Assembly (NCBI GenBank): GCA_964016885.1 | Contig: OZ024743.1 | Coordinates: 61,380,001 to 61,444,000 of the forward strand | DNA from: Eledone cirrhosa | Lineage: Eukaryota | DNA length: 64,000 bases | Direction of reading: 5' to 3' | Shown: piece by piece, positions 185-60,779 of the stretch | How the letters are laid out: each line of letters begins with the position of its first letter | Position numbering within the stretch: position 1 is the first letter of the stretch | The notes under the pieces: generated by a model | What the model was told of the DNA's origin: nothing | Databases searched by the model: none | Seen by the model: only the letters and a program-made list of their open reading frames with translations | Program-made: the position numbers and the translations under genes

Positions 185-187
<3 letters not shown>

Positions 188-379
188 CGGAGGAAATGTG
201 GTAAGGAACAAGGTGGACCATAACGCACCAAAGTACTCAATACTTAGGGTAGTAGAGTGGGTAATAGGAACGAGTAGGACCCCGACGGCTGAGCTCAAGC
301 CGTTTCGACGGCTAATAAAGTCCAGAATTAGCCGTCGAAACGGCTTGAGCTCAGCCGTCGGGATCCTACTCGTTCCTAT
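185..379 (-). mobile_element. ~195-bp non-coding hairpin element in (TA)n (family H, copy 1)
   Basis: Arms 264-316 and 327-379 are reverse complements (53 bp, one mismatch) around a 10-nt loop, with a unique tail at 185-263 and (TA)n on both sides. Homologues at 2808-3002, 54363-54557 and 60549-60732. Confidence 0.85.
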
Positions 380-2807: not shown

Positions 2808-3002
2808 TAACGGAGGAAATGTGGTAAGGAACAAGGTGGACCATAACGCACCAAAGTACTCAATACTTAGGGTAGTAGAGTGGGTAATAGGAACGAGTAG
2901 GACCCCGACGGCTGAGCTCAAGCCGTTTCGACGGCTAATAAAGTCCAGAATTAGCCGTCGAAACGGCTTGAGCTCAGCCGTCGGGATCCTACTCGTTCCT
3001 AT
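2808..3002 (-). mobile_element. Family H hairpin element (copy inside the duplicated block)
   Basis: Identical to 185-379. Confidence 0.85.
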
Positions 3003-3037
3003 ATATATATATATATATTATATATATATATTATATA

Positions 3038-3160
<123 letters not shown>

Positions 3161-3218
3161 TATACGTAGGTCCCGGGTTGAGTCGGGGATAACCACAGTA
3201 AGTAAGGTACTCAATATA

Positions 3219-3271
<53 letters not shown>

Positions 3272-3339
3272 ATTATATATTATATATATATATATTATAT
3301 ATATATATTATATATTATATATATATATATTATATATTA

Positions 3340-3423
<84 letters not shown>

Positions 3424-3599
3424 ATTTAATTAGAAAGTAAACAACACAATATAAAACTACTCCATTACCAAAGGTTTCAGGACCTAGACAATATTAATAT
3501 ACGTCTAGATCTTTCATCACTTTCTAATTAAATAGCTCTCTTTTTTCCTTTGCCTTTTCTTCGGAAATACCTAACACACACACACACATACACACACAC

Positions 3600-3669
<70 letters not shown>

Positions 3670-5314
3670 CACTCTCCAAAATTTTCTTTTCTCCTTAACT
3701 TGTTTTTCTAATTTTCCCCGTTTTTTCTTCTCATCACTCTTTACTTGCTATTTACATTCTATTTCTAACTGTATCTAACTCTATCTTCTGATGACGGACT
3801 AGTGTCCAAAAAGTTAAGACTCTCTTCCTGCTATTTCAAGCGTTAAACTATTATATGTTTCTATGTACCCATGTACTGTGTCATTTTGTTAATTTTGATC
3901 TTTTTGTCTATTTAGGTAAATTTACCAATGTATCTATTTTCGGATGAAAACAAAAACAACAATAGCAGTCCAAAGATAGATAGATAGATTGTGGAACACA
4001 TTTCTTTAATAACAATTAATGAGGAGCAATAAAAAAAACCCGTACAATGAGAGGTAATAGAGGAGGGTAAGACATTATAAGACTGATTATGATCTATCAC
4101 GATTGTGATTTAACAAAAACCTTATCAGGTGTTGAAAACATTTCATCCACAACAAGATAACTTCTTGTATTGAAAAAAACAAGATATAGGCATGATATAA
4201 ATATGGATTATCATTTATGATATGAATATGGATTATCAAATCAAGGACCAAGAAGCTGCAGATATACGGGGTCCATGGGGCTATAGACACATACAAATAT
4301 AATATCAGTGAGGTATACAATGTAATAAAATATTTCGGTGATTATAACTTATACTTACTTATTTGTCCTTTTGGCGGCGTTCACTTCTATAGAGAAGAGC
4401 TCGAACAGGTTAACTGCATGACATCTTGAGCACGTATCTTTAACTCGAGCCCTGTGCATTAAGTTTGGTGAACGGAAATGTCGGGCAGGCGATCAGATGG
4501 ACTGTATCTATAATTCAAAGTTCAGTCTCGTGCTACACTGTGTCAACTGAATTTCATTGATTATGATGCTAAGAACACACGTGTTTGTGGAATGCTCAGT
4601 CACTTACACATTATTTTAACGAGTAAGTCGTTCCGGTGATCAAGCAAAAAGAACACTCAACGGAGAAAGAGACGAAAGTCCATTTCAATTTGTTAATTTA
4701 TATATCCATACCAGTCAATCTTAGTTATGTGTGTGAGTATGTGTGTGAGTATGTAAGTATGTATATGTGCTTGTGTGAGTGTATATATACTCAACCATCC
4801 ATATACAAAAATGTATACAATGTATATTATAATATAGTTATGGTTGGTTGAGGGTTGATGTTTTACTCTATCAACCCCGGTGTGACCTCCAGCTTTCAAT
4901 AATAGTTTCTGATTTAAGCAGTCACACAAATGTCCTTTTTGTACAATGATGATCTATTTTCTGTCACTTTTAAAAACTCAAACTTATACTACAGTTAACT
5001 CACCCTTGACCATCCAACCACATGCTTCTTCCACACAAAAACCTAACCATTTTATGCCAGATATACTCTGAATATACGAACAGACACCTAAAGCGAAAAC
5101 TATGGCAAGCTTATCTCCTTAAACAGCATATAAAAGCTCAGTCTTCAATAACACACAATTCATACGCTTAACGACATTACAAATGCGAGAGTAAAGTGTC
5201 ATTCATAGCCATAACTTCGTTGTAAATGTTTGTGTTAGGCATCAACGTTAGACAATGCTTTTATAATTAACAATAATTATAACTAACAATGGTTATTAAT
5301 CCTAGACAGTTTGC

Positions 5315-10858: not shown

Positions 10859-11866
10859 ATTTTTTTGACCGGCCACCTTCCTGGTGGCAAGGTTGTAAAC
10901 GAAAAGAAATTGTCATCCCTTGAATCGCAAGAATGTTTTGCAAATTTTGAAGGTGCCAGCTATCGCAGCCATTTGTAGACTATGAATTAGGGAGCTGCGC
11001 TTTTTGTCCGCAAATCCAAGTTCAGTCATACTTTGGTCCAAGCGGGTTGGTATATAACCCGTAGCACCAATAATGAAGGGTATGAAGCTAAAGGTGTATC
11101 TTGGATACTGGATTTGTAAACTCCTCATCAATGGTCCGTAGATGTCCTTCTCCTGTATTTTTCTGACAACTTTTACATCAAGTGGGCAGCTGATCTCCAC
11201 AACAGAACACGTTTTCAATGTGTGGTCCCAAACTACAATATCAGGCCGGTTGTGCTTTAATTTGGTGGCAGTTTTTATTTTCAGGTTCCACCAGTATTCC
11301 TTAGTGCCATCTGTCTCAATATATTCTTCCTCATTTGTTGTTAATTTTGTTTTCCGAAGTGCGTTCCAGATGGTTCTAGCTATCCCATCGTGTCTCATGG
11401 GGAGGTAGTAGCGAGATGACATTCTTTCGCAGCTGGCAACAATGTGGCTTACATCCTCGATCTTTGTTTTACATAGCCTACATTTATTGTCAGCTGCTGG
11501 CCCTCCTCTTTTGTGCAGCAGATATTTGGTAGGGAGTTCTTGTTCCTGTATTGCATAGAGATATCTCTCAAGGTGTGATGTCATAAACTTGTCGGAACTC
11601 CATGCCAGGCTTTTTGAGTGGTTTATCCCCTCTATGGTCTGTGTTTTACGCCTCAAGTATCCATGCACAACTTTTTCTGTAAATTGGTCAATTTTTTTAT
11701 CTTGTTTGAACATTGAATAGGATCTTCCGATTTCTCTGGGTGAGAGATTTATATCAGGCTTTATTTCATATCGCTCCTCCAGATCAGTCGCTATTCTAAT
11801 GATATTTCTTTTTTCATGCTCATAAACCCGGGCAAGATGGTTGCCAACCTTTTTCCTCTGTTGAAG
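10859..11866 (-). mobile_element. RLE-type (R4/Dong-like) non-LTR retrotransposon, 5'-truncated, fragment B
   Basis: Open frame with a CCHC finger (CRLC..EDVSHIVASC), RHD, RPDIVV and VEISCP restriction-like endonuclease motifs. Stop at 10913, 3' hairpin GCCACC/GGTGGC and short A-tail. The 5' end joins a (TATG)n tract, which accounts for the HTYI repeat at the ORF N-terminus. Confidence 0.88.
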
Positions 11867-13170
11867 GTATGTATGTATGTGTGTATGTATGTATGTATGT
11901 ATGTATGTATGTATGTATGTATGTATGTATGTATGTATGTATGTATGTTCTTCTGGTTTTATAATTTCACAAATGTTACCAATAGAGTATGTATGTATGT
12001 ATGTATGTATGTATGTATGTATGTATGTATGTATGTATGTATGTATGTATGTATGTGTGAATGTATGTAAGTGTAGTAAGAGCGAAGCCCTGAAAGAGAG
12101 AATCCAGCTCGAGTGACTCATTATTATTTGTAGCCAACTGCCTTCCGATTTCAGTAAGTAGGAAGCTGAGACCCAGGACTCCAGATGTCTCCGCCGCTAG
12201 ATTTTTAGTTCATTTCTATTTAAATGATTGCGTTATATTGTATATCTTACAGCAGGTACAATACAAATACAACGATTGACTTACAAATTAAAATAGTTTT
12301 CATAGAAAATTGACAGTCTATAGAATATTCAAACCATGACCAACACCCTTAAATTTTTATATGCTTTGAAGATTCTCTAAATAATACATAGGGTCGTTAC
12401 ATGGCTTAGTTATTTAGGTTTTCGGCTCTTGATCATATGGTCCTGCATTCGATCCCAGCAGGGTTTGTGTCCCCAACCACGATGCTCCAGTTCACTTATA
12501 TGGCTAAAATAAGTTGTACCTGAAGTTCAAAGGACAGATCTAGTCCCACATTGTGTCACCCTGAATCTCACTTAGAATTAAATTTAGGATACATGTGTCT
12601 GTGGACAGGACCCGCTGGAAGGTGTGTTTGAGGACTATGCTCTAACAACCCTCCTAGGAATAACTGGGCGAAGAGGAGGAAGAAATGTCTGTGAAAATTT
12701 CAACCACAAGCGCGTTAATTTCAAGAGAAGGTTCTTCCATTGGTCAAAATAATGTAAGTCTCGTCGTTGGACCTACGATTTCCAACGCACGATGCATGTT
12801 AAAGTTCAGTGTAAACTACTGACGGGTGATGTAAGGTGACAGAGGTGAGATTGCACTGGTTTAAGGCATTGAGTTACCACATATCTGAATGTTCCCATAT
12901 TACATTGTGTCATTGCAATTTCATGGGGTGGGTAGTGTGTGTATGTCTGTCTGCAATTTTATGTGATCGTGTATATATATATGTGTGTGTGTTATGTGTG
13001 TGCGTGTGTGTGTGTTTACATAAACATATAAATATACATACATATATGAATGTATATTATTGTATGTGTGTGTGTGAATATACACATGTATTTTCTGTGA
13101 ATATAATTCTAAAAATTGCGGGTGTTGAACTGAAACACGCAGTGTATTGTAAACCTGATATTGTAGACGA

Positions 13171-18389: not shown

Positions 18390-18513
18390 AGCGAAGATTT
18401 CATATAGAAAAAGGTTTCTACAGGTCTAGAACTGTTTTATTCGTATAAAATCATCACATCTGAATGAAACAGTTCTACTCTTGTAGAAGCCTTTTCTATA
18501 TTAAATCTTCGCT
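18390..18513. repeat. Diverged hairpin (~52-bp arms) next to (TA)n
   Basis: AGCGAAGATTT..TAGAACTGTTTTATTC pairs with GAATGAAACAGTTCTA..AAATCTTCGCT. Confidence 0.8.
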
Positions 18514-19045
18514 GTCCTCCCTCTACATGTGTATTGAGTACCTAATTTACTGTGATTTCCAGCGATTCTACACACACACACACACAACACACACACACGG
18601 CACACATATATATATATATATATCTCTCTCTATATATATATTTAAATAGGGAGAACAGACCAGGCGGTATGCTGTATATTATATGATAGTTTCAAAAAAA
18701 CATGGCATGACTAAATCTTTAGAATATAAATCCAAATAGGAATATAAAACAAACAAGATAATGACAATGGAAAAAAAATCAACAGATAAACGGACAGTCC
18801 CATCTCCCCAGTCGACTTCTGGAAATCACTACGTCTTCGGTACGTTAAAGTCGTCGTCACCGTTCATCCCAGTACACTTTGGGCATACATAACAGGTAGA
18901 GACAAGTTATGCCTATAGGCAAATTACACAAATAAAGAGTGTGCAAGAGCTTAGCCAAAGGAAAAAATATGGAGCACAGCCCGTGCGGCATAATGTCTAT
19001 TGTATGATAGTTTCAAAACAAATCCCGCATCACTCAAGTATATAC

Positions 19046-19422: not shown

Positions 19423-19624
19423 CAGGATGGATTCAGTTTGAAACTCTTTAGACCATTCTTCAATAGAACACACGATACGACGGCTGAGCTCTTGCCATTT
19501 CAACAGATAGTACCAGACTATATATATGTTAATTGCTCTGGTTTCTTCTTAGTCCATTGAGCGCTTGCCGGCAAATCTCGAAGATTGTGTCTCGTTTTGT
19601 TTTGACCACCGCTGAAATTAAATT

Positions 19625-19675
<51 letters not shown>

Positions 19676-19821
19676 ATACTTTGGGAGGGTCATGTTGCCA
19701 ATAAGAAACACACGCACCAGTTGCTTTCACTTCAATTTATTATAATAAATTTATAAATTTAGGAATTTATAAATTTCCGGTTGGTTGGTTGGTTCCACAA
19801 CCAGATGATTGTTTATATATT

Positions 19822-19864
19822 GTCAAAGTTCTTTCGTCACACATTCTGTGACCTCTTCAGTGAC
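19822..19864 (-). ncRNA. Hammerhead ribozyme motif in the PLE1 3' UTR
   Basis: Reverse complement of 22162-22204. Confidence 0.75.
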
Positions 19865-20064
19865 TGGGGATTCTTTTCTTTGTTTTTTGTGCCTCTCCTT
19901 TGTTCTGTCCTACGCCATCTTGTTTTTGTGTGTGTTATGTGCTTAGTTTGCACATGTGTTACATCCGGATCTCTGTGTGTGTTTATATTTGTTTATTTAT
20001 TTGTTTATTTACATGTTACTGGTTGGTTGCTTGTTCTATGTGCGTGTGTGTTTTCATTTTGTCC

Positions 20065-21585
20065 TTACTTGTAAGTTGTGATGTTGCTGTTCCATTCATG
20101 TTTTCTATTTAATTTTGGTTGGAGTTCATTTATGTTTATTGCCTCTGTGATTTGTCTAAACATTGCGTCTTTTCTGTGTGTAGATTCTATTTTTATTTCT
20201 ATGTTCTCTAATTTACCCTTTTGTTCTATTTTAGCATGTTGGTAGAGTACAGATGATTCTTTACTATCTTGAAGGTCTCGCCAGTGTTCATTTATCCGTT
20301 CCCCTATACTAAGAGCTATCTCACCTATGTACACTATATTCTTATCTCTACATTGTCCTTCAGTACATCTTATGCTATATACTACATTTCTAGTTTTACA
20401 GTTAATATTGGGGCTTAATTTACAGATTATACATTTCTTATCTATACAGGGAGGTCTTTGAAAAGGGTATGTATTGCTAATAAGTGTTTTTATGGAGGTA
20501 CCTGATCTTTCTACTATCTTAATATTGAGTTTATGTTTATCTAGGGCCCTTCTAAATTTGTAAGCTAACTCACCTCTAGGGTTGTATCGATGAACATTAC
20601 ACTCTGGTATTTATTGCTATCATACCATGAGTTTATTCTATTAACCTTATTCCTAGTTCTTTCTATTCTATTCCAAAATTTGCTCCTATACAAGTGGCAG
20701 GTCCCATTTGTGTCATTATTTACCATTTTTTCCCATTTGGTTCTGGCTCCTCTATATACTCTGATTTTATCTCTCTGATTGTAACCAGAGTACTGCATAC
20801 GGTGGATGAAGTGTTGTATGTGTCTCTCTAGTTCTTTGGGGTTGCACATGAGGGACACGTTTATAATCACCCGTACCAAATCCGCAATCAGTATGTTGAT
20901 TTTGGTATGGTCCGAAACAGCTGAGTTTCGGTGGATCAGATGTTTGGAAGTCATGGGTTTGGCATAATGGGAATGGAGGATTTGTTTTTTGTTATTAATG
21001 GTATCTAACCAGAGCTCTGTGTCTAGTACAGGTAATCGATGGTTGGGGTGTTTGCTTGGGTAGTCTATAGTAACTCTAATACTCTGGTGGATGGAGTTAG
21101 CTATTTGCTGGATGCTTTCCATGGTGTTTTTCTCTAATTCCTGACTGTTCTCTAGTGGGGGTGTTTTTACTACGATGTTTATATCATCAACGTAGCGGGA
21201 GTACATTATCAGGGTTAAGGGGTTGCTGTCTTCTAATTGTTCTTTAAGTTTAAGTTTAAGTCTATTGTCCCACCATACCATGAATAGGTTAGCTATGTCA
21301 CCTGCAATGCTAACACCAATGGCTGCTCCCTCCTCTTGGGCATATTTTTTACCATTAAATTTGAACATATGTTCTTTAAGGGTTAATTTTATGCTGGCCC
21401 CCACCGCATGTGCAATCATTTCCTTTAGTTCATCGTGGTTTTCGGGGGTCCGTATGGCCCTGGTCAACCCGTTCCATCTATCCGTGTGGGTTTTCTTGGC
21501 CATTGAGGTAATGGTAGGTGGTCTGCCTCTTGCTGGTATTGTAGGGCACAGGTTATTAAGGCCATATGTATCTAGATAATCATTA
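20065..21585 (-). pseudogene. PLE reverse transcriptase + GIY-YIG endonuclease, 5'-truncated, one frameshift near 20575
   Basis: RT motifs QEEGAAIG, YSRYVDD and LPVLD; linker CIDKKCIIC (Cx4CxxC, Neptune-like); endonuclease NVVYSIRC..VYIGE..RINEH..HAKIE..RQITEAINI..LNRKHEW. Confidence 0.93.
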
Positions 21586-21594
21586 CTATATATA

Positions 21595-21961
21595 TATAAT
21601 CTGTAAATTAAGCCCCAATATTAACTGTAAAACTAGAAATGTAGTATATAGCATAAGATGTACTGAAGGACAATGTAGAGATAAGAATATAGTGTACATA
21701 GGTGAGATAGCTCGTAGTATAGGGGAACGGATAAATGAACACTGGCGAGACCTTCAAGATAGTAAAGAATCATCTGTACTCTACCAACATGCTAAAATAG
21801 AACATAAGTGTAAATTAGAGAACATAGAAATAAAAATAGAATCTACACACAGAAAAGACGCAATGTTTAGACAAATCACAGAGGCAATAAACATAAATGA
21901 ACTCCAACCAAAATTAAATAGAAAACATGAATGGAACAGCAACATCACAACTTACAAGTAA
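21595..21961 (+). pseudogene. Inverted copy of the PLE1 GIY-YIG domain
   Basis: The ORF 21566-21961 translation matches the minus-strand endonuclease except ARS/ALS and HKC/QKG. Confidence 0.9.
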
Positions 21962-22161
21962 GGACAAAATGAAAACACACACGCACATAGAACAAGCAAC
22001 CAACCAGTAACATGTAAATAAACAAATAAATAAACAAATATAAACACACACAGAGATCCGGATGTAACACATGTGCAAACTAAGCACATAACACACACAA
22101 AAACAAGATGGCGTAGGACAGAACAAAGGAGAGGCACAAAAAACAAAGAAAAGAATCCCCA

Positions 22162-22204
22162 GTCACTGAAGAGGTCACAGAATGTGTGACGAAAGAACTT
22201 TGAC
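22162..22204 (+). ncRNA. Hammerhead ribozyme motif in the inverted PLE1 pLTR
   Basis: GTCA-CTGAAGA-g-GTCACA gaatg TGTGAC-GAAAG-aa-CTT-TGAC: 4-bp stem I, 6-bp stem II, minimal stem III and a CUU triplet, ~200 nt after the stop codon. Confidence 0.75.
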
Positions 22205-22434
22205 AATATATAAACAATCATCTGGTTGTGGAACCAACCAACCAACCGGAAATTTATAAATTCCTAAATTTATAAATTTATTATAATAAATTGAAGTGAA
22301 AGCAACTGGTGCGTGTGTTTCTTATTGGCAACATGACCCTCCCAAAGTATAACAATATCGGTTTCAACACACATTTTCAGATAAAGAATCTTGCTAAACA
22401 AATTCAGAAACGAAATATATATATATATATATAT

Positions 22435-23705
22435 ATTTACTAAAATAACAGATTAAAGTTTAAGCAAAGAATTGCTGCTTTCACCCTTAACGGGATCTTC
22501 AGAATCTAACAAAGTTAATCTGTGAACGCAGAAGTGAATATTTCAAAAAACGTTGCAACCGGAGGAAGACAGGCAGACGATACTTTGGTTCGTGGAAACG
22601 TTCCCTGGCAAAGAACGTGAAAAAACGAATATAATACGTCATTATTTGGAGCGGTGAAAAACAATTACACGCAAAGACAAAACCACGTTTGTGGTATAAA
22701 AGAAGTCGTAGACTAATATTCTCTTAGGTGGTTCATAGAGACGTTCTCTGGCAATGAACGAAAAAAACGAAGATAATACGTTATATGTGGAGCGTGGAGA
22801 ACAATTGCACGCAAAGACAAAACCACGTAAATGGTATAACTGAAGTCGTAGACTAAAATTCTAACTAGGAAACCGAATGATTCTCGGCTTCAGAGTTAAG
22901 AATAAAGTAAATAAAATACAGAGGTAATTGAAATTAAATAAATACATACACGCATCCATATACGTACATACACAAGCATACGCGAAAACACTCGCCATAG
23001 GTATACAAATACACGCACATATAAATATGTGTGTGTGTGTGAATGCGTGTGTGTGTGTGTGCGTGTATACAAATAATTAAATAAACGTATATAAATAAAT
23101 AAATACGTATATAACAAGCGCACACACATACCTACATGTAAATACATATATGTTCGGAGACGACGTCAACCAAAACACGAAGTACATATATACACACACC
23201 CTACATACGTACGAACCCGCTACTCACACAGACGCAAAACTCACGTATACACATAACCAAAAGCATATGTACCAGTATATATATAATATACGCCATAACA
23301 TATACAATCAAATATACGTACGAGAAAGTATACGTACCTTCACAAAACATACAGGTAATATATACTTACCTATGCAAATAAGTAATGGTATAAACATAAC
23401 ATATACTTAGCTACCACATCAAGACGTAAAATATCCGCGTATAGATCGTACTATCCGTTAGGGTAATACAGGAAAGTTTTGTGCAATTTATGTTTACAAG
23501 CCGAAATTGCCTCAGATTTTTTGTTTAAGATGTGGTCTGTGGCGTGGAGTATTTCCAGGGCCTCAGCGGCGCAGAGGTCACATGGTCTTTTATTTCCGTT
23601 ATACGATCTAGCCCAAGCTAGGATCTCCCAGTGTAACTTATATTGGGTGTGGTTGTCTTTTAGACTCCAGATATAAGCTGAAAGTGACGTCATATTCCTT
23701 CTTAA
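22435..23705 (-). mobile_element. PLE 3' fragment, family N copy 1 (endonuclease C-terminus + ~1-kb 3' UTR with an internal ~143-bp tandem duplication)
   Basis: TSLSAYIWSLK..WEIL..ARSY..CDLC..E..I..LNKKSE..CKH resembles a Naiad-type PLE endonuclease tail. Homologous to 46615-47750. Duplicated units at ~22587-22729 and ~22730-22869; HHR-like CTGAAGA-T-CCC gttaa GGG-T-GAAAG at ~22470-22505 (-). Confidence 0.75.
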
Positions 23706-23929
23706 CCACCAGAGCCAAAAAAGCGAACAAGCTAAACGGGTCAAACAAAATAAGATATGATATATATATATATATATATATATATACCTATAATGATCAT
23801 TTGCCCTCCTTTTTCTGATTTTGAAAGCATAAGTATCTATATTTTATAGTTTTGTTTTTGTTGCTTTTTTGCATAATCATCAAAACTACCACTATTAAGA
23901 ACATCTCCATAACCACTACCTCCCCCGGT

Positions 23930-24576: not shown

Positions 24577-27423
24577 CAGTGGTTCCCAAATTTTTTTCGG
24601 AATGAAAATTTGCTCGTGCCTCACCAAATTTTATGTGACAAAAAGTACATATAAAAAAACAATGACTAATAATGCATTAAATATAATATATAACACAAAT
24701 ATCTTATAATATGATTAAAGAACACAAATTTACTGAAAGGTACGAGCTTGATTTTGACGAGTAATCTCCTTTATATTAGACCTAATTTGAGATAAACAAA
24801 CTCTTATTTCCTCATCAACAACAAAGAATTCTTTCCCTTTTTTTGTTTTTTGATATTTGTCAGAACTGACAATCCTTGTTCACAACAATATGTCGTGGAG
24901 AACTGTAGAAGTATAGATAATGATGTTGAAGAGGCATATGGATAGTGTTTCTGGTTGTATATAAAAAAAAGATTCAGTGGTACACTCTTGTATTTCATTT
25001 TTAAGGTGCGATCACTCGAAATATTTGCCAAGTCTTCCTCCCCATCTAAACAGATCTAAACAGCTTGAATTTGCAAAAGGATCTCTAATCCAGTCAAATT
25101 TTTCTGTAGACAACGATGTAATCATAATGTTTTTGTAAAAGTTTTGCAATATGTTCCTGTATAAGGGCATACCATTTCTTATTCATTTTAAAACTTTTTA
25201 CCGATGGGAACATTTCTAGGTTATGTTGCATCGCTTTTCCTAGCCAGAGTTGAAGCTTTCTTTTTAATGCAGTGAGTTTATCTGTAGTCGTGAGGATATT
25301 CTCATCGCGGCTTTGCATACTGGCATTGGGCATGTTTAATCTGGAAAAGATATCGGCCAAATATGCTAGTTTCGCACACCAGTCATTCTCACCCAGCTGG
25401 TGAAACAATGGGTTTCCTTCTTCTTTTAAAATTGCTTTTAATTCGTTCTTCAGTTCCAAAATCCGATTTAAAACTTTTCCCCGGGATAGCCAGCGAACAT
25501 CCGTGTGCAGAAGTAAGCAGTGGTGTTCTGATTCCATGTCTTTGCATAGTTGACAAATAATCTCGCCTTTATTGGTTTTGCTTTGAAGTTTACAATGCAC
25601 ACCGTTTGAACCAAAATCAATTTCAAATCCTTCACAAGGGTCTTGGAGACTAATGCTTCTCTGTGTATAAAACAGTGAGTTGATATTACATCTGGATTTA
25701 TCTTTCTGTTGATTGCCACCAAGCCTCTCATATTCCCTATCATTCTTGGAGCTCCATCCATGAAAATTCCAATACAAGAATTCCATGAAATCTCAAACTT
25801 TTCAAAATACTTAAACAGGGCTTGAAATATATCTTTTCCCCTAGTACGTTCTTCAAGTTCCTTGCAAAATAAAAACTGCGTTATTATTTCGTTATTATAA
25901 ATGAATCTGATATAAGCAAGCAACTGAGTATTTCCAATAATGTTGATAAATTCATCAACTTGAATGGCAAATTTAGAATTCTTAATATTTTCAGAAACAC
26001 AGTTCTCAATATTAGCTGTCATATCAACTATTCTTTTGCGAATTGTATTATCAGACATAGGAATTTTTATAACTTCTTGCTCAGCATCATAACCAAATAA
26101 AGTTTTCAATCAAGCGGATAGCAAGCTTAATTCATTTTTAGGCTATTAAATGAGGTTTTGTTTGTTGAGCAACCAATTTTGCTACTTTGTGCGATACAAT
26201 CTGCATCTTGTCTGAAATTGTTACTAATTTTTCTAATATGATCGCTGGTGTTTCTGTTGATCCAAAAGCCTTTCAAAGTATTGAACATGCTTGCCTGCCA
26301 GATGTTCATGTTTTGTCAACAGATGTCTTTTCATGTTTTCATATTGGAATTGGAAAGCTTTTCGCCACAGTTCAAACACATAAGTTGAGGTGCATTTTTA
26401 TCTCCATTCCATGAGAAACCGAAACTCAAATAGCAATCCATATGCTGTCGGCAAACTTTCTATTTTGGAATCTTGCTTGGGCCTGCTTCTTTTGTAGAAT
26501 TTGGCGAGTCTTCTTCAATACCGTTTTTCTGATGATTCTGGATTGCCAAATGGAATATGATTGTCTTCGTTATTACTTGATGCTTTCGATCTTTTTTAAA
26601 AATAATATCTGTTCTGAAAGGAATAAAATATGTTATTATTAGGGCCCACAAATTAGAGGGGAATCGTAAAATATTTTCGGCCAAAAATTGAAACTACATA
26701 ACTATTTAATCAGAGATATTTTATGACTGATCAAAATTTTTTTGTTAGTTAAGTTTTTTTAAAAGATTTATTAAAATTTACTTTGAAAAGAAAAACGAAA
26801 AGAACAAAACATCACAAAAAGGAAGAGAAAATACGAACAGAAAACAAACAAGGAGCTGAAAATAAACTAACAAAAAACAGACGTACAAACGATGCTATTG
26901 CCGGGCTAGATAGAAATGTGGATTTGAACGAAGCACGTCTGACCCTGTGTTTAGCCGTTTTGTTCAAGGGCCGTAATGCCGAAAATGAAACACCGGCTCG
27001 GAGGAAGGGAATTCCCGGTGAAATGGCGAGCAGCCCTACGGCAAAGAAGGTCCAGAGAGAGGGCTAAAAGCAGATAACCACGGATTCGAAGTCAGAACAT
27101 TATCATTGATAATTCTCTCCTCCAATTTGCGGACCCTAGTTACTATGTTCTTAATACTTGATATAATGCAAAAATATCATAATGATAAAATATCACAATG
27201 ATAAAATATTACAATGATAAAATCGGTCAATAATTATGTTTGACGATTTATACTGGGACTCATGCATGCAATTTCAAGTAATCCATAATAATATTTTAAA
27301 TTTTCAAATCATATTTATTTTTAGCATATGAATTTTTTGAAACTGTTTCTAAATCTTTGATTGTCTTTCAATCATTCAGCCTCACTTGCTATCCTAGTCC
27401 GCCGCACCATTTGGGAACCACTG
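24577..27423 (-). mobile_element. Full-length hAT DNA transposon (Buster/Charlie type)
   Basis: 15-bp TIR CAGTGGTTCCCAAAT at both ends; 8-bp TSD GACTATAA (24569-76) / GACTATAT (27424-31) with central TA; 16-bp subterminal tandem repeat at ~27171-27222. Confidence 0.93.
24740..26580 (-). pseudogene. Frameshifted hAT transposase
   Basis: Fragments IPMSDNTIRKRI, FAIQVDE, DGAPRMIG, THCFIHREAL, HTDVRWLSRGKVL, LAYLADIF and FSTTYCCEQGLS across several frames. Confidence 0.92.
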
Positions 27424-34783: not shown

Positions 34784-35250
34784 TATATTGGTAAACGGAA
34801 TAGAAAATGCTGACAAATTGTTCACAGTTGAAAAATGGTTTAATTAGGAATAAAACAGTATTAGTGATTGTATGGGTTAGTATTCAGTTGTGGTTTTAAG
34901 TTTTTAAGTTTTTACCAGTTGCGCATTTCTAAATGCTTTTCAAAAATAATTTTGAGATAGAGTGTCCGTGTTGTTTGCTCTGATCTGATTAGTTTTAAGA
35001 ATTCTACCTGTTTTTATGTTAAAAAAGTGGCTCCAATTTGCAAAAATTCTTGTGGTCAAAACAATTTTGATTGGTCGGTAGAGGTCATGTGAATGTAAAA
35101 AATTGATTTTGCGCCAAGACTGTTTTTATGTTAAAAAAGTGGCTCCAGCAAACATTCTTGTGGTCAAAACAATTTTGATTGGTCGGTAGAGGTCATGTGA
35201 ATAAAAAATTGGTTTTGCGCCAAGATTGAGAAATGACTCTTTCACAACAA

Positions 35251-35326
<76 letters not shown>

Positions 35327-35392
35327 TAGTAGTAGTAAGGTGTTCGATGTGATAATGGTTAGCAGCGATGTGTGTCAAATGGCTATTAAGAT

Positions 35393-35431
<39 letters not shown>

Positions 35432-35473
35432 AGTCTCTTTGTATGTTGATGTACGCGTGTGTATGTGTGTGTG

Positions 35474-35522
<49 letters not shown>

Positions 35523-35671
35523 ACCAGTATTTTTTTTCCCCCTGGTAAAATGGTGTACATTATTCGATTTTTTCAGTAAAATCGGTTCTCTTAATAGAAC
35601 ATCAAAAATCTTAACAATAAAAGGTGTGAAATGATATTCACTATATATATATACACATACATACATTCACT

Positions 35672-35702
<31 letters not shown>

Positions 35703-37328
35703 CATATATACATATATATACATATATATATATGCACATATATTTTCTTGTGTTGCACCATAGAGCATGTGTGTTTACGTATGTCATTGTGTTTATATGT
35801 GGGTAGAGATGTGTGCTGATGTAGGTATGTATGTTGACGTGTGTATGTTGTGGGTTCGTCTTAGGGAGAAGTGTTTAGACGGGGTCCGTATTTGTTAATG
35901 AAGTAAGATTCCTTGCTGATGCGCTGGGTGTGGGTGGCATTATCTTTAAATTTGTAGAGGGGAAAGATTCTGAAGTTGGGATGATTTTGGGCGGCACAGG
36001 TATCAATGTGTTCACTCAGTGGTATTTTTCTGTATTCCCGTATTTTGATTTGGGATCTATGGACAGTCATGCGTTGGCGGAGGCTGTTTTTAGTCTGGCC
36101 TATGTATTGTTCTCGACAACGTGAACAAGTTAATACATATATTAGATTTTCCGATGCACATGTGAAATTGTGTTTTACTATAAAACGTTGTCCATCTTTG
36201 AAATAGAATTCCGAACCCTCTATTAGGTTGATGCAAATGCCACAGTTGGGTCTATCGCATTTTTTTTACTGTGGGTTTCGTTGTTGTGGTTGGCAGTACT
36301 TTGGCATGTGTTAAGATGTTTTTCATTGACTTGGATTGTCTTTTGCTCTTTATGATGTCGTGTGTTCGTAGAATTTGGTTCATTCTATAGTCCTTTTTCA
36401 ATACAGGGATGTTCAGGAGGATGGTGTCAAAGGCCTCACTGTTGAGGGGGTTGTGTGTGGAGATGTATGGAAGAGCTTTTAGTTTTGGTTGATTTACTTT
36501 AGGGTGTCTAAGGTCCTGGGTACTGAGTTTTAGGGCACGTTGGATTCCATTGTCAATTAGTGATGCAGGGTAGTCCCTGCCTATGAGTGTGTCCTTTAGT
36601 TCTTGTAGCCGTAAGTAGCAGATGTTTTTATTGGAGACTATAGTACAGATTCTCTTGGCTAAGTTGTAGGGAATATTAATTTTAACGTGTCTAGGGTGGC
36701 AAGAGTTGAAGGGGAGATATTGCTTGGAGTCTGTGGGGTTGTAGTATATGTCTGTTTCTATTTTTTTGTTATGGATCTTAATGAGGATGTCGAGGAAGGG
36801 GAGTTGTTGATGGCTGTATTCCATCGTGAAGTTAATATTTGTGTTGAGCCCATTTATAAGGGTGTGAAATTCTTTAAGTTTTTCGATGTTTTCGTGCCAA
36901 AGGATGAAGCAGTCATCTAGATATCGCTTCCAGTTCCTTTCAATGTGTAAGTGGAGGGTGTTTCCAAATTTGTTTAGGACTTTAGTGTAGAGGGTGATTT
37001 CCAGGTATCCCATGACTAGGTTGGCATAAGTGGGGGCTGTTTTCGTTCCCATAGCGGTCCCAGATTTCTGCCTGTAGGGTTTGTTATTGAAAACGAAGTA
37101 ATTGTTCTCCAAGATAAATTTGAGTCCCTCTATCACGAATTCTTTTTTGATGCGTTGTGGGAGTTCATTGTGGAAATTATCCAGCCAGAATTGGATAGCT
37201 TCTATTCCTAGGTTGTGGGGGATGTTGGAGTATAGGTTGACTACATCGAACGTCACTAGTAGGGTTTGTTCAGAAAGTGGCATATTAGGAAGAAAATATA
37301 TGTGCACATATATATATGTATATATATG

Positions 37329-37361
<33 letters not shown>

Positions 37362-37511
37362 ATAGTGAATGTATGTATGTGTATATATATATAGTGAATA
37401 TCATTTCACACCTTTTATTGTTAAGATTTTTGATGTTCTATTAAGAGAACCGATTTTACTGAAAAAATAGAATAATGTACACCATTTTACCAGGGGGAAA
37501 AAAATACTGGT

Positions 37512-37556
<45 letters not shown>

Positions 37557-37750
37557 TACACACGCGTACATCAACATACAAAGAGACTTATATATACACA
37601 CACACACACACACGCACTTCTCCGTATAAGACAAAAGCTGAAAAATATCTTTTGACATGCTAAAATACCCCCCATTGCTTTCAGACACATTCTTACTGAC
37701 CATCCCTGCCACCACGAATTACTCTGCTACACACACACACACACACACAC

Positions 37751-37829
<79 letters not shown>

Positions 37830-37901
37830 ATCTTAATAGCCATTTGACACACATCGCTGCTAACCATTATCACAACATCGAACACCTTACTACTACTACT
37901 A

Positions 37902-37948
<47 letters not shown>

Positions 37949-38424
37949 CACACACATATTTGTTGTGAAAGAGTCATTTCTCAATCTTGGCGCAAAATCA
38001 ATTTTTTATTCACATGACCTCTACCGACCAATCAAAATTGTTTTGACCACAAGAATTTTTGCTGGAGCCACTTTTTTAACATAAAAACAGTCTTGGCGCA
38101 AAATCAATTTTTTACATTCACATGACCTCTACCGACCAATCAAAATTGTTCTGACCACAAGAATTTTTGCAAATTGGAGCCACTTTTTTAACATAAAAAC
38201 AGGTAGAATTCCCAAAACTAATCAGATCAGAGCAAACAGCACGGACACTCTATCTCAAAATTATTTTTGAAAAGCATTTAGAAATGCGCAACCAGTAAAA
38301 ACTTAAACTTAAAACCACAACTGAATACTAACCCATACAATCACTAATACTCTTTTATTCCTAATTAAACCATTTTTCAACTGTGAACAATGTGTCACCA
38401 TTTTCTATTCCGTTTACCAATATA
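34784..38424 (-). mobile_element. Penelope-like element 2: 5'-truncated, with a ~1-kb inverted copy of its 3' region
   Basis: 34784-35749 is the reverse complement of 37290-38424 (the right arm has an extra ~110 bp at ~37615-37730). RT and endonuclease lie between the arms. Confidence 0.9.
35861..37289 (-). pseudogene. PLE (Neptune-like) RT + GIY-YIG, 5'-truncated, one frameshift in an A-run near 36262
   Basis: FDVVNLYSNIP, QKSGTAMG, RYLDDCF, LPFLDI, SCHPRH; linker CDRPNCGIC; IYVLTCSRCREQYIGQT..RMTVH..EH..KESYFI..LN. Confidence 0.95.
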
Positions 38425-50770: not shown

Positions 50771-51659
50771 TGTTTCTTTTATTTGCCACTAGGGCATCAA
50801 AAGTGGGACAAGTACAAAGGGGGGAGTTTACACAAAAAGGCGTCCTCAATAAGGAGGAGGCAATAACAAAATATAAAAATAAAATAAGATATAACAAAAA
50901 ATAAAATTTTTAACAAAATCCTCAATAGAGAGGAGGCGCCTTGGGGGGTCGCACACACCCCCGAAAAAAGTGTGCAACCCTTCTCCTCAGGAGCACAGAG
51001 AAGGGGTGCTCCCTTGGTCTTTCATCTTCCTCACCTATAGTCTGATGTAGAGTGAAGGCCCATTCACACGGGCCATTCTCGCCACTTTCACCCATCTTTC
51101 ATAGAAACGGCTGGGGTGCAGCACCTCTCTCTCCATCCTGATCCTTCTTCCGAAATGATATCGGAAGAAACGGACCAGTTGTTGGCCAGAGAGAAAGGTG
51201 CCTGACCTCAGTCCTTTCAGACGCGTCCACCATACAACCTCTTTCGCCATGGCTATTACGCACAGAAACACCGCCTCTGCTTCATCTTTGAAGGGGGGAG
51301 GCGGCTTGATCATTACAATAGACTCGGTGGTCAACCGGATCGGTCCCACCCTTGACAGCAGTTGTTCGACATAGCCCCACAGATCGGCTACGCCCGAGCA
51401 GTGTACCAATGCGTGTGCAACGGTTTCCTCGTCGCACACGCATCTGGGACAGATCTTTTTGGCGGGGTCCCTACCCGGGCGCCCGTGTCTGTAGAGCCTT
51501 TCTCGAACGGGTAAAGCCCCTCGGTAGCACTGCCAGGCCAGGGACTTCTGGAAGTTGTCCATAGGTCCCGGGCTGAATGTCCTACCGAACAGGCTGGCCA
51601 GTTCGTCCTCCTCCATGTCTAGGGCTTCTCCGAGGGCGTCGTCGCACCTGCTGCGTACC
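50771..51659 (-). mobile_element. L1/Tx1-clade LINE, 5'-truncated, inserted in (GATA)n
   Basis: Open frame 51659-51035 with a zf-RVT-like region (WQCYRGALPVRERL..CPRC..ETVAHALVHC..W). The 3' UTR ends AAATAAAAGAAACA, and (GATA)n lies on both sides. Confidence 0.85.
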
Positions 51660-51690
<31 letters not shown>

Positions 51691-52603
51691 GAGTAATAGG
51701 GAGAGAGAGAGAAAGGGAGAGAGAGAGAAAGGGAGAGAGAGAGAGAGAGGTCAAAATACGTAAATGCAAGAGAGAGATGATACAGAATTGTATTAAAAGG
51801 TGTGATGCTTAGTGATGTGTATGACAATGTTATCTGTTAGACTTGTTTTAAATACCTGCCTAGTCAATTGTATAACAGTAAGTGTCAGGTGTTATAAATA
51901 TATAGAGAACCACCTGTGAGACTTTTCTGTTATTTAAGGGATGTAACACATATGTCGGAGAGAAAAAACACTGAAGCTGAATATAGAAGCGGAAAAGAAC
52001 ACTTCCGATGTTATGCACTGAAAGTATAGAATAAACTTCTAACTTAATCCCTTTGCTACTAAACTGCTTAAAACTTGCAATCACTATCACCCCGCACCTT
52101 GCAAATCAGTGAATCTAATTGTTTACAAACTTTTGTGTCCTTTTATCATTCAAGTTAAATAAAAACTTCCTAAGTAATAACAAAGGAAAGGGCAAGAATC
52201 GGTTTTCACATCGGACTAAGGAAATTATGTTTTCAGTGGTCTTTCCATTGGTATCGTGCTCAACTCTTGGCAGAAAATAGCAGCAATTTGTTTTCGTAAA
52301 AGTATATTTTCGATCAACAACCCCTAATACATAGTAGCTCAACAATTTCTCAAAAAATACAATCTAACAATTATTAGATCATTTCCAGGTTCATGGTTAA
52401 CCAGCTTGCTACCGAATCGCTTAATAATGCGTTTGTTTCTACCTCAGTGAACTGGAATTTTTGAAATGATAATATTTATCAGTGAACTTGCATGGCGCAG
52501 TGGATAGGGTGCCGGACAAGCGAATACTTATTCACGTTACTCCAGTTCACTCAGCTGCGGAAGAAGTTAAGTTGAGACGACACTGACGCCAAGTTATATC
52601 AGC

Positions 52604-54265: not shown

Positions 54266-54557
<292 letters not shown>

Positions 54558-60548: not shown

Positions 60549-60732
60549 TAAGGAAGTGTGGTAAGAAACCAGGTGGACCATAAGGCACCGGAGTACTCGA
60601 TACTTAGGGTAGTATAGTGGGTAATAGGAAAAGAGCCAGGATCTCGAGGGCTGAGCTCCGGTCGTTTCGACAGCGTTCGGATCTAGCTGTCGAAACAACC
60701 GGAGCTCAGCCGTTGGGGTCCTGACTCTTTTC
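60549..60732 (-). mobile_element. Family H hairpin element, divergent subfamily
   Basis: Same tail (GTGGTAAG..GGTGGACCATAA..GTACTC.ATACTTAGGGTAGTA.AGTGGGTAATAGGAA) and a hairpin at 60629-60732 with different arm and loop sequence. Confidence 0.85.
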
Positions 60733-60779
60733 ATATATATATATATATAAACATAATTACATCTTCAAGAAGATGCTTC

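Follow-up and report, generated by a model that had tools for sequence, protein, structure and literature searches.

Head-to-head hairpins in (TA)n tracts of Eledone cirrhosa: probable pseudo-LTR ends of a Hydra-clade Penelope-like element, with a possible promoter inside its hammerhead ribozyme

Structure of the hairpin and its copies

The window analyzed here, a 64,000-nt stretch of the Eledone cirrhosa genome (contig OZ024743.1), contains near its left end a hairpin at positions 185–379, surrounded by (TA)n and consisting of the following parts.

1–184, no strand: (TA)n target microsatellite, tail side
185–263, minus strand: 80-nt tail of the long arm, which in tandem parents continues into the 5′ UTR ~90 nt before the ATG
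264–316, minus strand: long arm with the 3′ half of a hammerhead, element-sense on minus, cut off 7 nt upstream of GTCGAAAC
317–318, no strand: junction bases AA, absent from the parent sequence of either arm and varying between copies
319–379, plus strand: short tail-less arm, with AGT (the fixed stop point) at 319 and a CCTAT end that abuts (TA)n
380–527, no strand: (TA)n target microsatellite, short-arm side

Positions 264–316 and 327–379 pair with a single mismatch (280/363). The element is asymmetric, with a tail-less arm of 61 nt (319–379) facing an arm of 132 nt (185–316) that includes the 80-nt tail. The original prediction had read each arm as the 3′ half of a hammerhead, and the motifs are indeed found in both arms: GAAA, a stem III of 6 bp whose loop contains GAGCTC, and then GTC (at 337–340, 340–345/353–358 and 357–359 of the short arm). 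CTGANGA is missing from both strands of 185–379, as had been stated. The hairpin centre, described as sitting exactly where stem II would be, has to be placed more carefully: it is not the stem II loop itself, as stem II of the parents closes a loop of ~33 nt and the centre lies in its 3′ part. The description of the hairpin is thus partly confirmed, real but with corrections. The short arm is 98.4% and the long arm (264–316) 97.7% identical to the end of one long copy (L132), and a tail motif at 233–242 is common to a sibling family, B. The hairpins have neither a TATA-like box nor the downstream 5′ UTR, and they are likely dead on arrival.

Four related sequences were found elsewhere in the window.

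2808–3002, minus strand: identical twin of 185–379 (100%), within a 2.4-kb duplication spanning a 200-N gap
54363–54557, plus strand: independent insertion of the same family, with long arm and tail on the plus strand, 94.9% identical to 185–379 on the opposite strand
60549–60736, minus strand: older insertion of a diverged subfamily (79%) with the same build
19478–19523, minus strand: single-arm fragment of a third, more distant subfamily, which also begins at AGT

Positions 185–2607 and 2808–5273 are duplicated at 97–99.8% identity across the gap, and the twin is probably the same insertion assembled twice through an assembly overlap. The copies at 54363 and 60549 had been proposed to share the architecture of 185–379. 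This holds for 60549, whose subfamily has long copies mostly with a TTGATAA core and a co-varied stem II. The copy at 54363 has the same build, total length and G>A arm mismatch, but it differs in its centre and at 10 positions; one variant present on both its arms is missing from 185. The G>A change is shared by 185 and 54363 on the short arm only, and is rare elsewhere (3/185 arms).

The family had been regarded as dispersed, and a 19-nt core pattern gave 73,926 exact matches in the 3.0-Gb genome against 0 for the reversed control. There are therefore ~74,000 arms genome-wide, far above chance. Within 980 kb of unselected DNA we counted 47 tailed or tail-less arms, and many copies are single arms.

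The parent element

The parent was traced by selecting copies that extended further 5′ in unselected DNA and using that extension as the next query. The upstream sequence that the traced copies have in common reaches up to 1.46 kb, and following it led us to a GIY-YIG domain. When loci were chosen by endonuclease DNA, 24 of 30 continued into the hairpin's end on the same strand, which confirms the expected link to a Penelope-like element (PLE) reading frame. Several of these loci encode reverse transcriptase (RT) and endonuclease within the same frame; for L141, L144 and L149, a single frame contains RT motifs (FDIESYY, YRDD) and a VIY..YIG domain. In the long copies, the RT-GIY-YIG ORF is followed by a 1-kb 3′ UTR, a whole three-stem hammerhead fold and the hairpin's end. 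The same end lies directly upstream of the ATG in 22 of 30 loci chosen by ORF-start DNA, and for this reason we regard it as a pseudo-LTR (pLTR) present in tandem; the ATG follows the GTCGAAAC core by 216 nt. One near full-length copy (L167) comprises, between (TA)n runs, an inverted tail-less arm, an ATG-started ORF, the 3′ UTR, the ribozyme and the tail, which is the build of the window hairpin at a scale of 3.5 kb.

The motifs DKTG, CNCPDGSIC (CxCX5C), CNLC (CxxC) and CKH (CxH) were found, together with RWR where RWK is expected (one copy read), and the (TA)n flanks correspond to a Hydra-type target. The Hydra clade is characterized by DKT, RWK, a CxCX5C linker, CxxC and CxH around E and N, the lack of CCHH, and (TA)n targets (PMC8557442). 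Pfam gave no match for two natural parent ORF pieces, and the RT and GIY-YIG identifications come from motifs. Over 151 aa, the parent RT and a Neptune-like RT of the window have 25% identity. To judge from its motifs and layout, the parent is an autonomous Hydra-clade PLE with RT plus a GIY-YIG domain at the C-terminus. The proposed origin of the hairpins in the hammerhead of a PLE is thereby upheld, with short copies devoid of the 5′ catalytic box, and the original interpretation as a whole is partly supported.

Two further features of long copies may be mentioned. An exact 8-nt complement of GTCGAAAC is present in the 3′ UTR of 7 of 10 long copies (L168–L176), ~290 nt upstream of the core; it could pair with the core or be due to chance. 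In L135 (1–6863), tandem units of ~60 nt extend over 6.8 kb beside a long hairpin copy.

The hammerhead ribozyme

In the parent, ACCCC/GGGGT after GTC forms stem I, and a 9-bp stem II around the ~33-nt loop and stem III complete the fold. The core reads UUGANAA (U3–A8) in 5,322 copies and CUGAGAA in 1,512; in the latter, represented by L101–L130 among the loci examined, C3 stands opposite A8 and the core is unpaired. A parent bearing CUGANGA had been anticipated. CTGANGA gave 111 matches 33–62 nt upstream, of which 10 among the 100 listed are collinear with the parent, and 50 matches within 32 nt; both sets are mostly chance junctions. Since the parent core is non-canonical, no CUGANGA parent was seen.

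Among 17 hand-picked natural copies from several subfamilies, stems I–III are paired in 90.9% of cells. Three pairs of stem II are changed on both sides, which represents few independent events; the 3–8 pair is U–A in 12 copies and unpaired in 4, and core position 7 varies freely. On its stems, core boxes, 3–8 pair and NUH site, the parent is predicted to be a type I hammerhead, an assignment that does not extend to the C3–A8 copies. One natural parent copy folds as a three-way junction, no better than its shuffles (z −0.14). An Rfam search of the window gave nothing at the gathering score, and three loci searched with E values of up to 5 gave no hammerhead.

No junction peak was found at the putative GTC cleavage site, either among the 47 arms of the 980 kb of unselected DNA (2/47) or among ORF-bearing copies (4/32 begin ≤16 nt after GTC). 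Several ORF-bearing or inverted copies (L181, L185, L184, L204, L192) start 0–16 nt after GTC. The 4/32 may give a faint hint of cleavage in read-through RNA. With a Poseidon element (PAc), hammerhead catalysis was not needed for insertion in vitro (PMC11167929); the subfamily with an unpaired 3–8 position multiplied anyway, in agreement with cleavage being dispensable for insertion.

The fixed stop point

Only ~9% of arms keep the 5′ core ((5,322 + 1,512)/73,926) and ~91% are without it; exact matching and uncounted variants make the former a slight underestimate. The loss is concentrated at one point. AGT, 15 nt upstream of GTCGAAAC, is reached by 21,897 arms. No more than 7,692 retain a further 7 bases of the parent, and this number comes from a less strict pattern, which one common hairpin centre also matches. 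Among the 47 arms of the unselected DNA, 3 extend past −140, 1 starts at −139 to −21, 16 start at −20 to −13 and 27 start further 3′. We inspected 98 of the first 100 AGT-reaching arms of one chromosome: 24 continue as parent and 74 stop, 61 of them no more than 3 nt beyond AGT and one 20 nt beyond it. In all 24 parents, a box of the TATT(T/C)A type is located 29–31 nt upstream of the stop point, and the TYAGT found there resembles an initiator. An extra cap-type G occurs in 13 of the 74 stopped arms, about half of which can be explained by the other arm. Runs of 13–21 T or A directly precede AGT in L345, L371, L384, L363 and L208, and are likely due to untemplated or slipped synthesis at the template end.

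The sibling family B shows a related arrangement. Its copies in the window are listed below, and others were found in L003, L010, L025, L058 and L100.

18390–18570: family B copy
528–582: family B copy, with a twin at 3162–3216

Family B also forms tailed/tail-less hairpins in (TA)n and shares the tail motif, ~42 nt after GTC, but has a canonical CTGATGA minimal hammerhead with almost no stem III. In 9 long copies, TATAAATAC or CATAAATAC lies 29–33 nt upstream of its own stop point, and 7 of 8 arms stopping there carry an extra G where the parents have C or T.

We propose that the stop point in loop II is likely the transcription start of the element, because of the TATA-like box, the TATA sequence and extra G of family B, and the location of PLE promoters in the pLTR (PMC2377424, PMC3846280). 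In the case of L1 and SVA, an untemplated G has been interpreted as a trace of the cap (PMC4859970). A start inside the hammerhead would explain why the arms carry only half of it. We give about even chances to a promoter lying within the element's own ribozyme: the TATA-like box would overlap the 5′ strand of stem II and transcription would begin in loop II, so that the copy at the mRNA 5′ end is a disarmed half and an intact 3′ copy terminates the RNA. The hairpins would then be run-off records left by two-primer reverse transcription of this mRNA, and family B would start just upstream of a whole hammerhead.

An alternative that keeps the same parent and two-primer build takes the stop point as a 3′ splice acceptor (YAG), or as a place in loop II where a structure or a protein halts reverse transcription. 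The point does read (T/C)TTAG or TTCAG and follows a stretch rich in pyrimidines, CTAAT/CTAAC lies shortly before it in the diverged subfamily, where a clear TATA box is missing, and an intron of D. virilis Penelope ends at hammerhead stem I (PMC4209133). None of the 32 ORF-bearing copies begins at the point, which also agrees with this reading; 16 begin at scattered sites further upstream. However, the 74 stopped arms have no common upstream exon, the sequence at the point is conserved among subfamilies whose local folds differ, and the TATA at −30 and the extra G of family B speak for transcription. We therefore consider splicing or a block rather unlikely. For the transcription start that we prefer, the 0/32 means that long copies need another RNA (read-through, multimeric or circular), with the added assumption that start-site RNAs would end at the 3′ ribozyme.

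Formation of the hairpins

The architecture of the insertions was determined from 129 head-to-head pairs not chosen by the original query. These comprise 94 tailed plus tail-less, 6 tailed–tailed and 3 tail-less pairs, with 26 unclassed. Tailed with tail-less therefore accounts for 94/103 classed pairs, and 5 of the 6 tailed–tailed pairs are internal tandem pLTRs. At both outer ends, a TAT adjoins (TA)n. The two arms of one copy share their subfamily and some private variants.

The original prediction had a single cDNA folding back at stem II to give a hairpin, which thereafter spread as a non-autonomous unit. In accordance with this model, short copies are of similar total length, two centres recur (4 and 3 of 67), the two arms of a copy share subfamily and private variants, the rare arm mismatch is common to 185 and 54363, and self-priming was once proposed for inverted PLE junctions (PMC3846280). 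Nevertheless, 62 of the 67 short hairpins have distinct centres, some of which hold templated repeats of nearby sequence, and the two recurring centres are simple microhomology joins. The same build is found at all sizes up to near full-length (3.5 kb), and many copies are single arms. The short arm is longer in 22, shorter in 28 and equal in 17 of the 67 hairpins; either arm can be the longer, and neither is nested in the other, which argues against fold-back. The fold-back and unit-spread model is largely refuted by the diversity of the centres, and we regard it as very unlikely. A self-propagating MITE- or SINE-like unit was rejected on the same count of centres, as internal structure shared by descent is absent. 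The arm mismatch was also considered as a lineage marker. Its excess in the first 30 loci is due to the query, and it is no such marker because only 1/85 short and 2/100 long arms not chosen by the query carry it. A DNA element, whether MITE, Helitron or Helentron, that ends in a hairpin and resembles a hammerhead only by chance would account for the fixed ends and terminal palindrome, but has practically no probability, being refuted by collinearity with the RT-GIY-YIG ORF and disfavored by the variable 5′ truncation and by stems I–III paired with double-sided changes in stem II.

The pairing of tailed with tail-less arms, the distinct centres and the TAT ends fit instead two primers, from two target strands, at two internal sites. 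We propose that the hairpin probably represents head-to-head, 5′-truncated pseudo-LTR ends of the Hydra-clade PLE, likely rebuilt at each insertion from RNA likely capped inside loop II. The element's protein would nick both (TA)n strands, and the two target 3′ ends would then serve as primers on the RNA, at two UAU sites separated by 80 nt within its 5′ pseudo-LTR. Each cDNA would extend to the 5′ end of the RNA, ~60 nt from one site and ~140 nt from the other, and run off there; the free ends would be trimmed and joined with templated or untemplated filler. The template may be one RNA or two RNAs from one locus, and the hairpins are compatible with either. If the RNA starts 3′ of the UUGA box, its 5′ end would hold a half ribozyme and would not cut off its own cap, whereas the hammerhead copy transcribed at the 3′ end would be whole. 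The protein of an anole PLE cleaves both strands in vitro and extends them, and synthesis begins at two internal positions that delimit the tail (PMC11167929).

As such, the hairpin is ordinary PLE debris. The family bears on how inverted-copy-plus-tail insertions of PLEs arise and on what their hammerheads do. Its ~74,000 natural products, in which priming sites and stop point are fixed and tailed arms pair strictly with tail-less ones, favor two primers over fold-back and give exact positions. If the proposal is correct, the DNA of tens of thousands of hairpins is enough to locate the start site and the two priming sites.

Comparison with known elements

The element resembles members of the Hydra clade such as Hydra-1_Obim in a single RT and C-terminal GIY-YIG ORF, DKT, CxCX5C, CxxC, CxH and (TA)n (Craig et al. 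2021, PMC8557442). The N-terminus and RT of this octopus element, as printed in the supplement of that paper, can plainly be aligned by eye with the parent. In contrast, the parent measures ~3.4 kb with a 1-kb 3′ UTR against <3 kb for Hydra, has RWR for RWK, and combines a U3–A8 or C3–A8 core with a long loop II and a 5–6 bp stem III where the same paper reports canonical hammerheads for Hydra. Three diagnostic motifs of the hairpin's end are absent from the text of that supplement, so the parent is a different family. Judged from its sequence, it appears to be a new Hydra family making a known kind of insertion in great numbers, and it may already be catalogued in Repbase or Dfam.

Endonuclease-bearing (EN+) PLEs form inverted pLTR-plus-tail units (PMC3846280, PMC8557442, PMC2377424). 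These also have a 5′-truncated inverted copy beside a direct one, a tail at one end, partial tandems forming the pLTR, and a promoter within it. They differ in tail length (30–40 nt versus 80 nt here); moreover, most copies here are of the minimal form, and truncation piles up at one point. With Poseidon PAc in vitro, the element shares two internal RT start sites bounding the tail and extension of both target strands. Its start sites lie in the 5′ UTR with a 3-nt TAT match to (TA)n, whereas those of PAc lie in the ORF and are reported to be non-homologous to the cut DNA (PMC11167929).

The U3–A8 variant has been described in the Cercyon PLEs of Schistosoma (PMC4209133), with U3–A8 for C3–G8, a G10.1–C11.1 pair and a palindromic loop III, all as found here. 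The present ribozyme differs in its stable stem III, its ~33-nt loop II with a likely promoter, and the 1,512 copies with C3 and A8. Non-LTR retrozymes are likewise non-coding, hammerhead-related and PLE-derived, although they are head-to-tail tandems with whole ribozymes (bioRxiv 10.64898/2026.07.22.740005), in contrast to the head-to-head half copies here. This orientation and the absent 5′ core rule out a retrozyme. The insertion architecture has thus already been described, and the putative promoter within the ribozyme would be the new element of this account; a literature search largely confined to papers outside subscription yielded no description of transcription starting within the hammerhead of a PLE.

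Other elements in the window

Further PLE sequences are present in the window. At 19668–22358, another PLE with an RT piece (20565–21620, weak RVT_1 match) and an endonuclease-like end is flanked by inverted repeats of 767 nt, with hammerhead motifs reading CTGAAGA at 19860 and 22166. A Neptune-like PLE occupies nested inverted repeats at 34903–38307, with Pfam matches to RT (36252–37400) and GIY-YIG (35861–36265). A further Hydra-like endonuclease is represented by its C-terminus, and other PLE families by hammerhead-like motifs, at 23451–23843 (minus), 22500 (minus), and 8994 and 1122 (plus). Three broken ORFs on the minus strand are presumed to derive from a restriction-like-endonuclease non-LTR element (10913–12196), a hAT-type transposase (25094–26109) and an L1/Tx1-type C-terminus (51035–51808).
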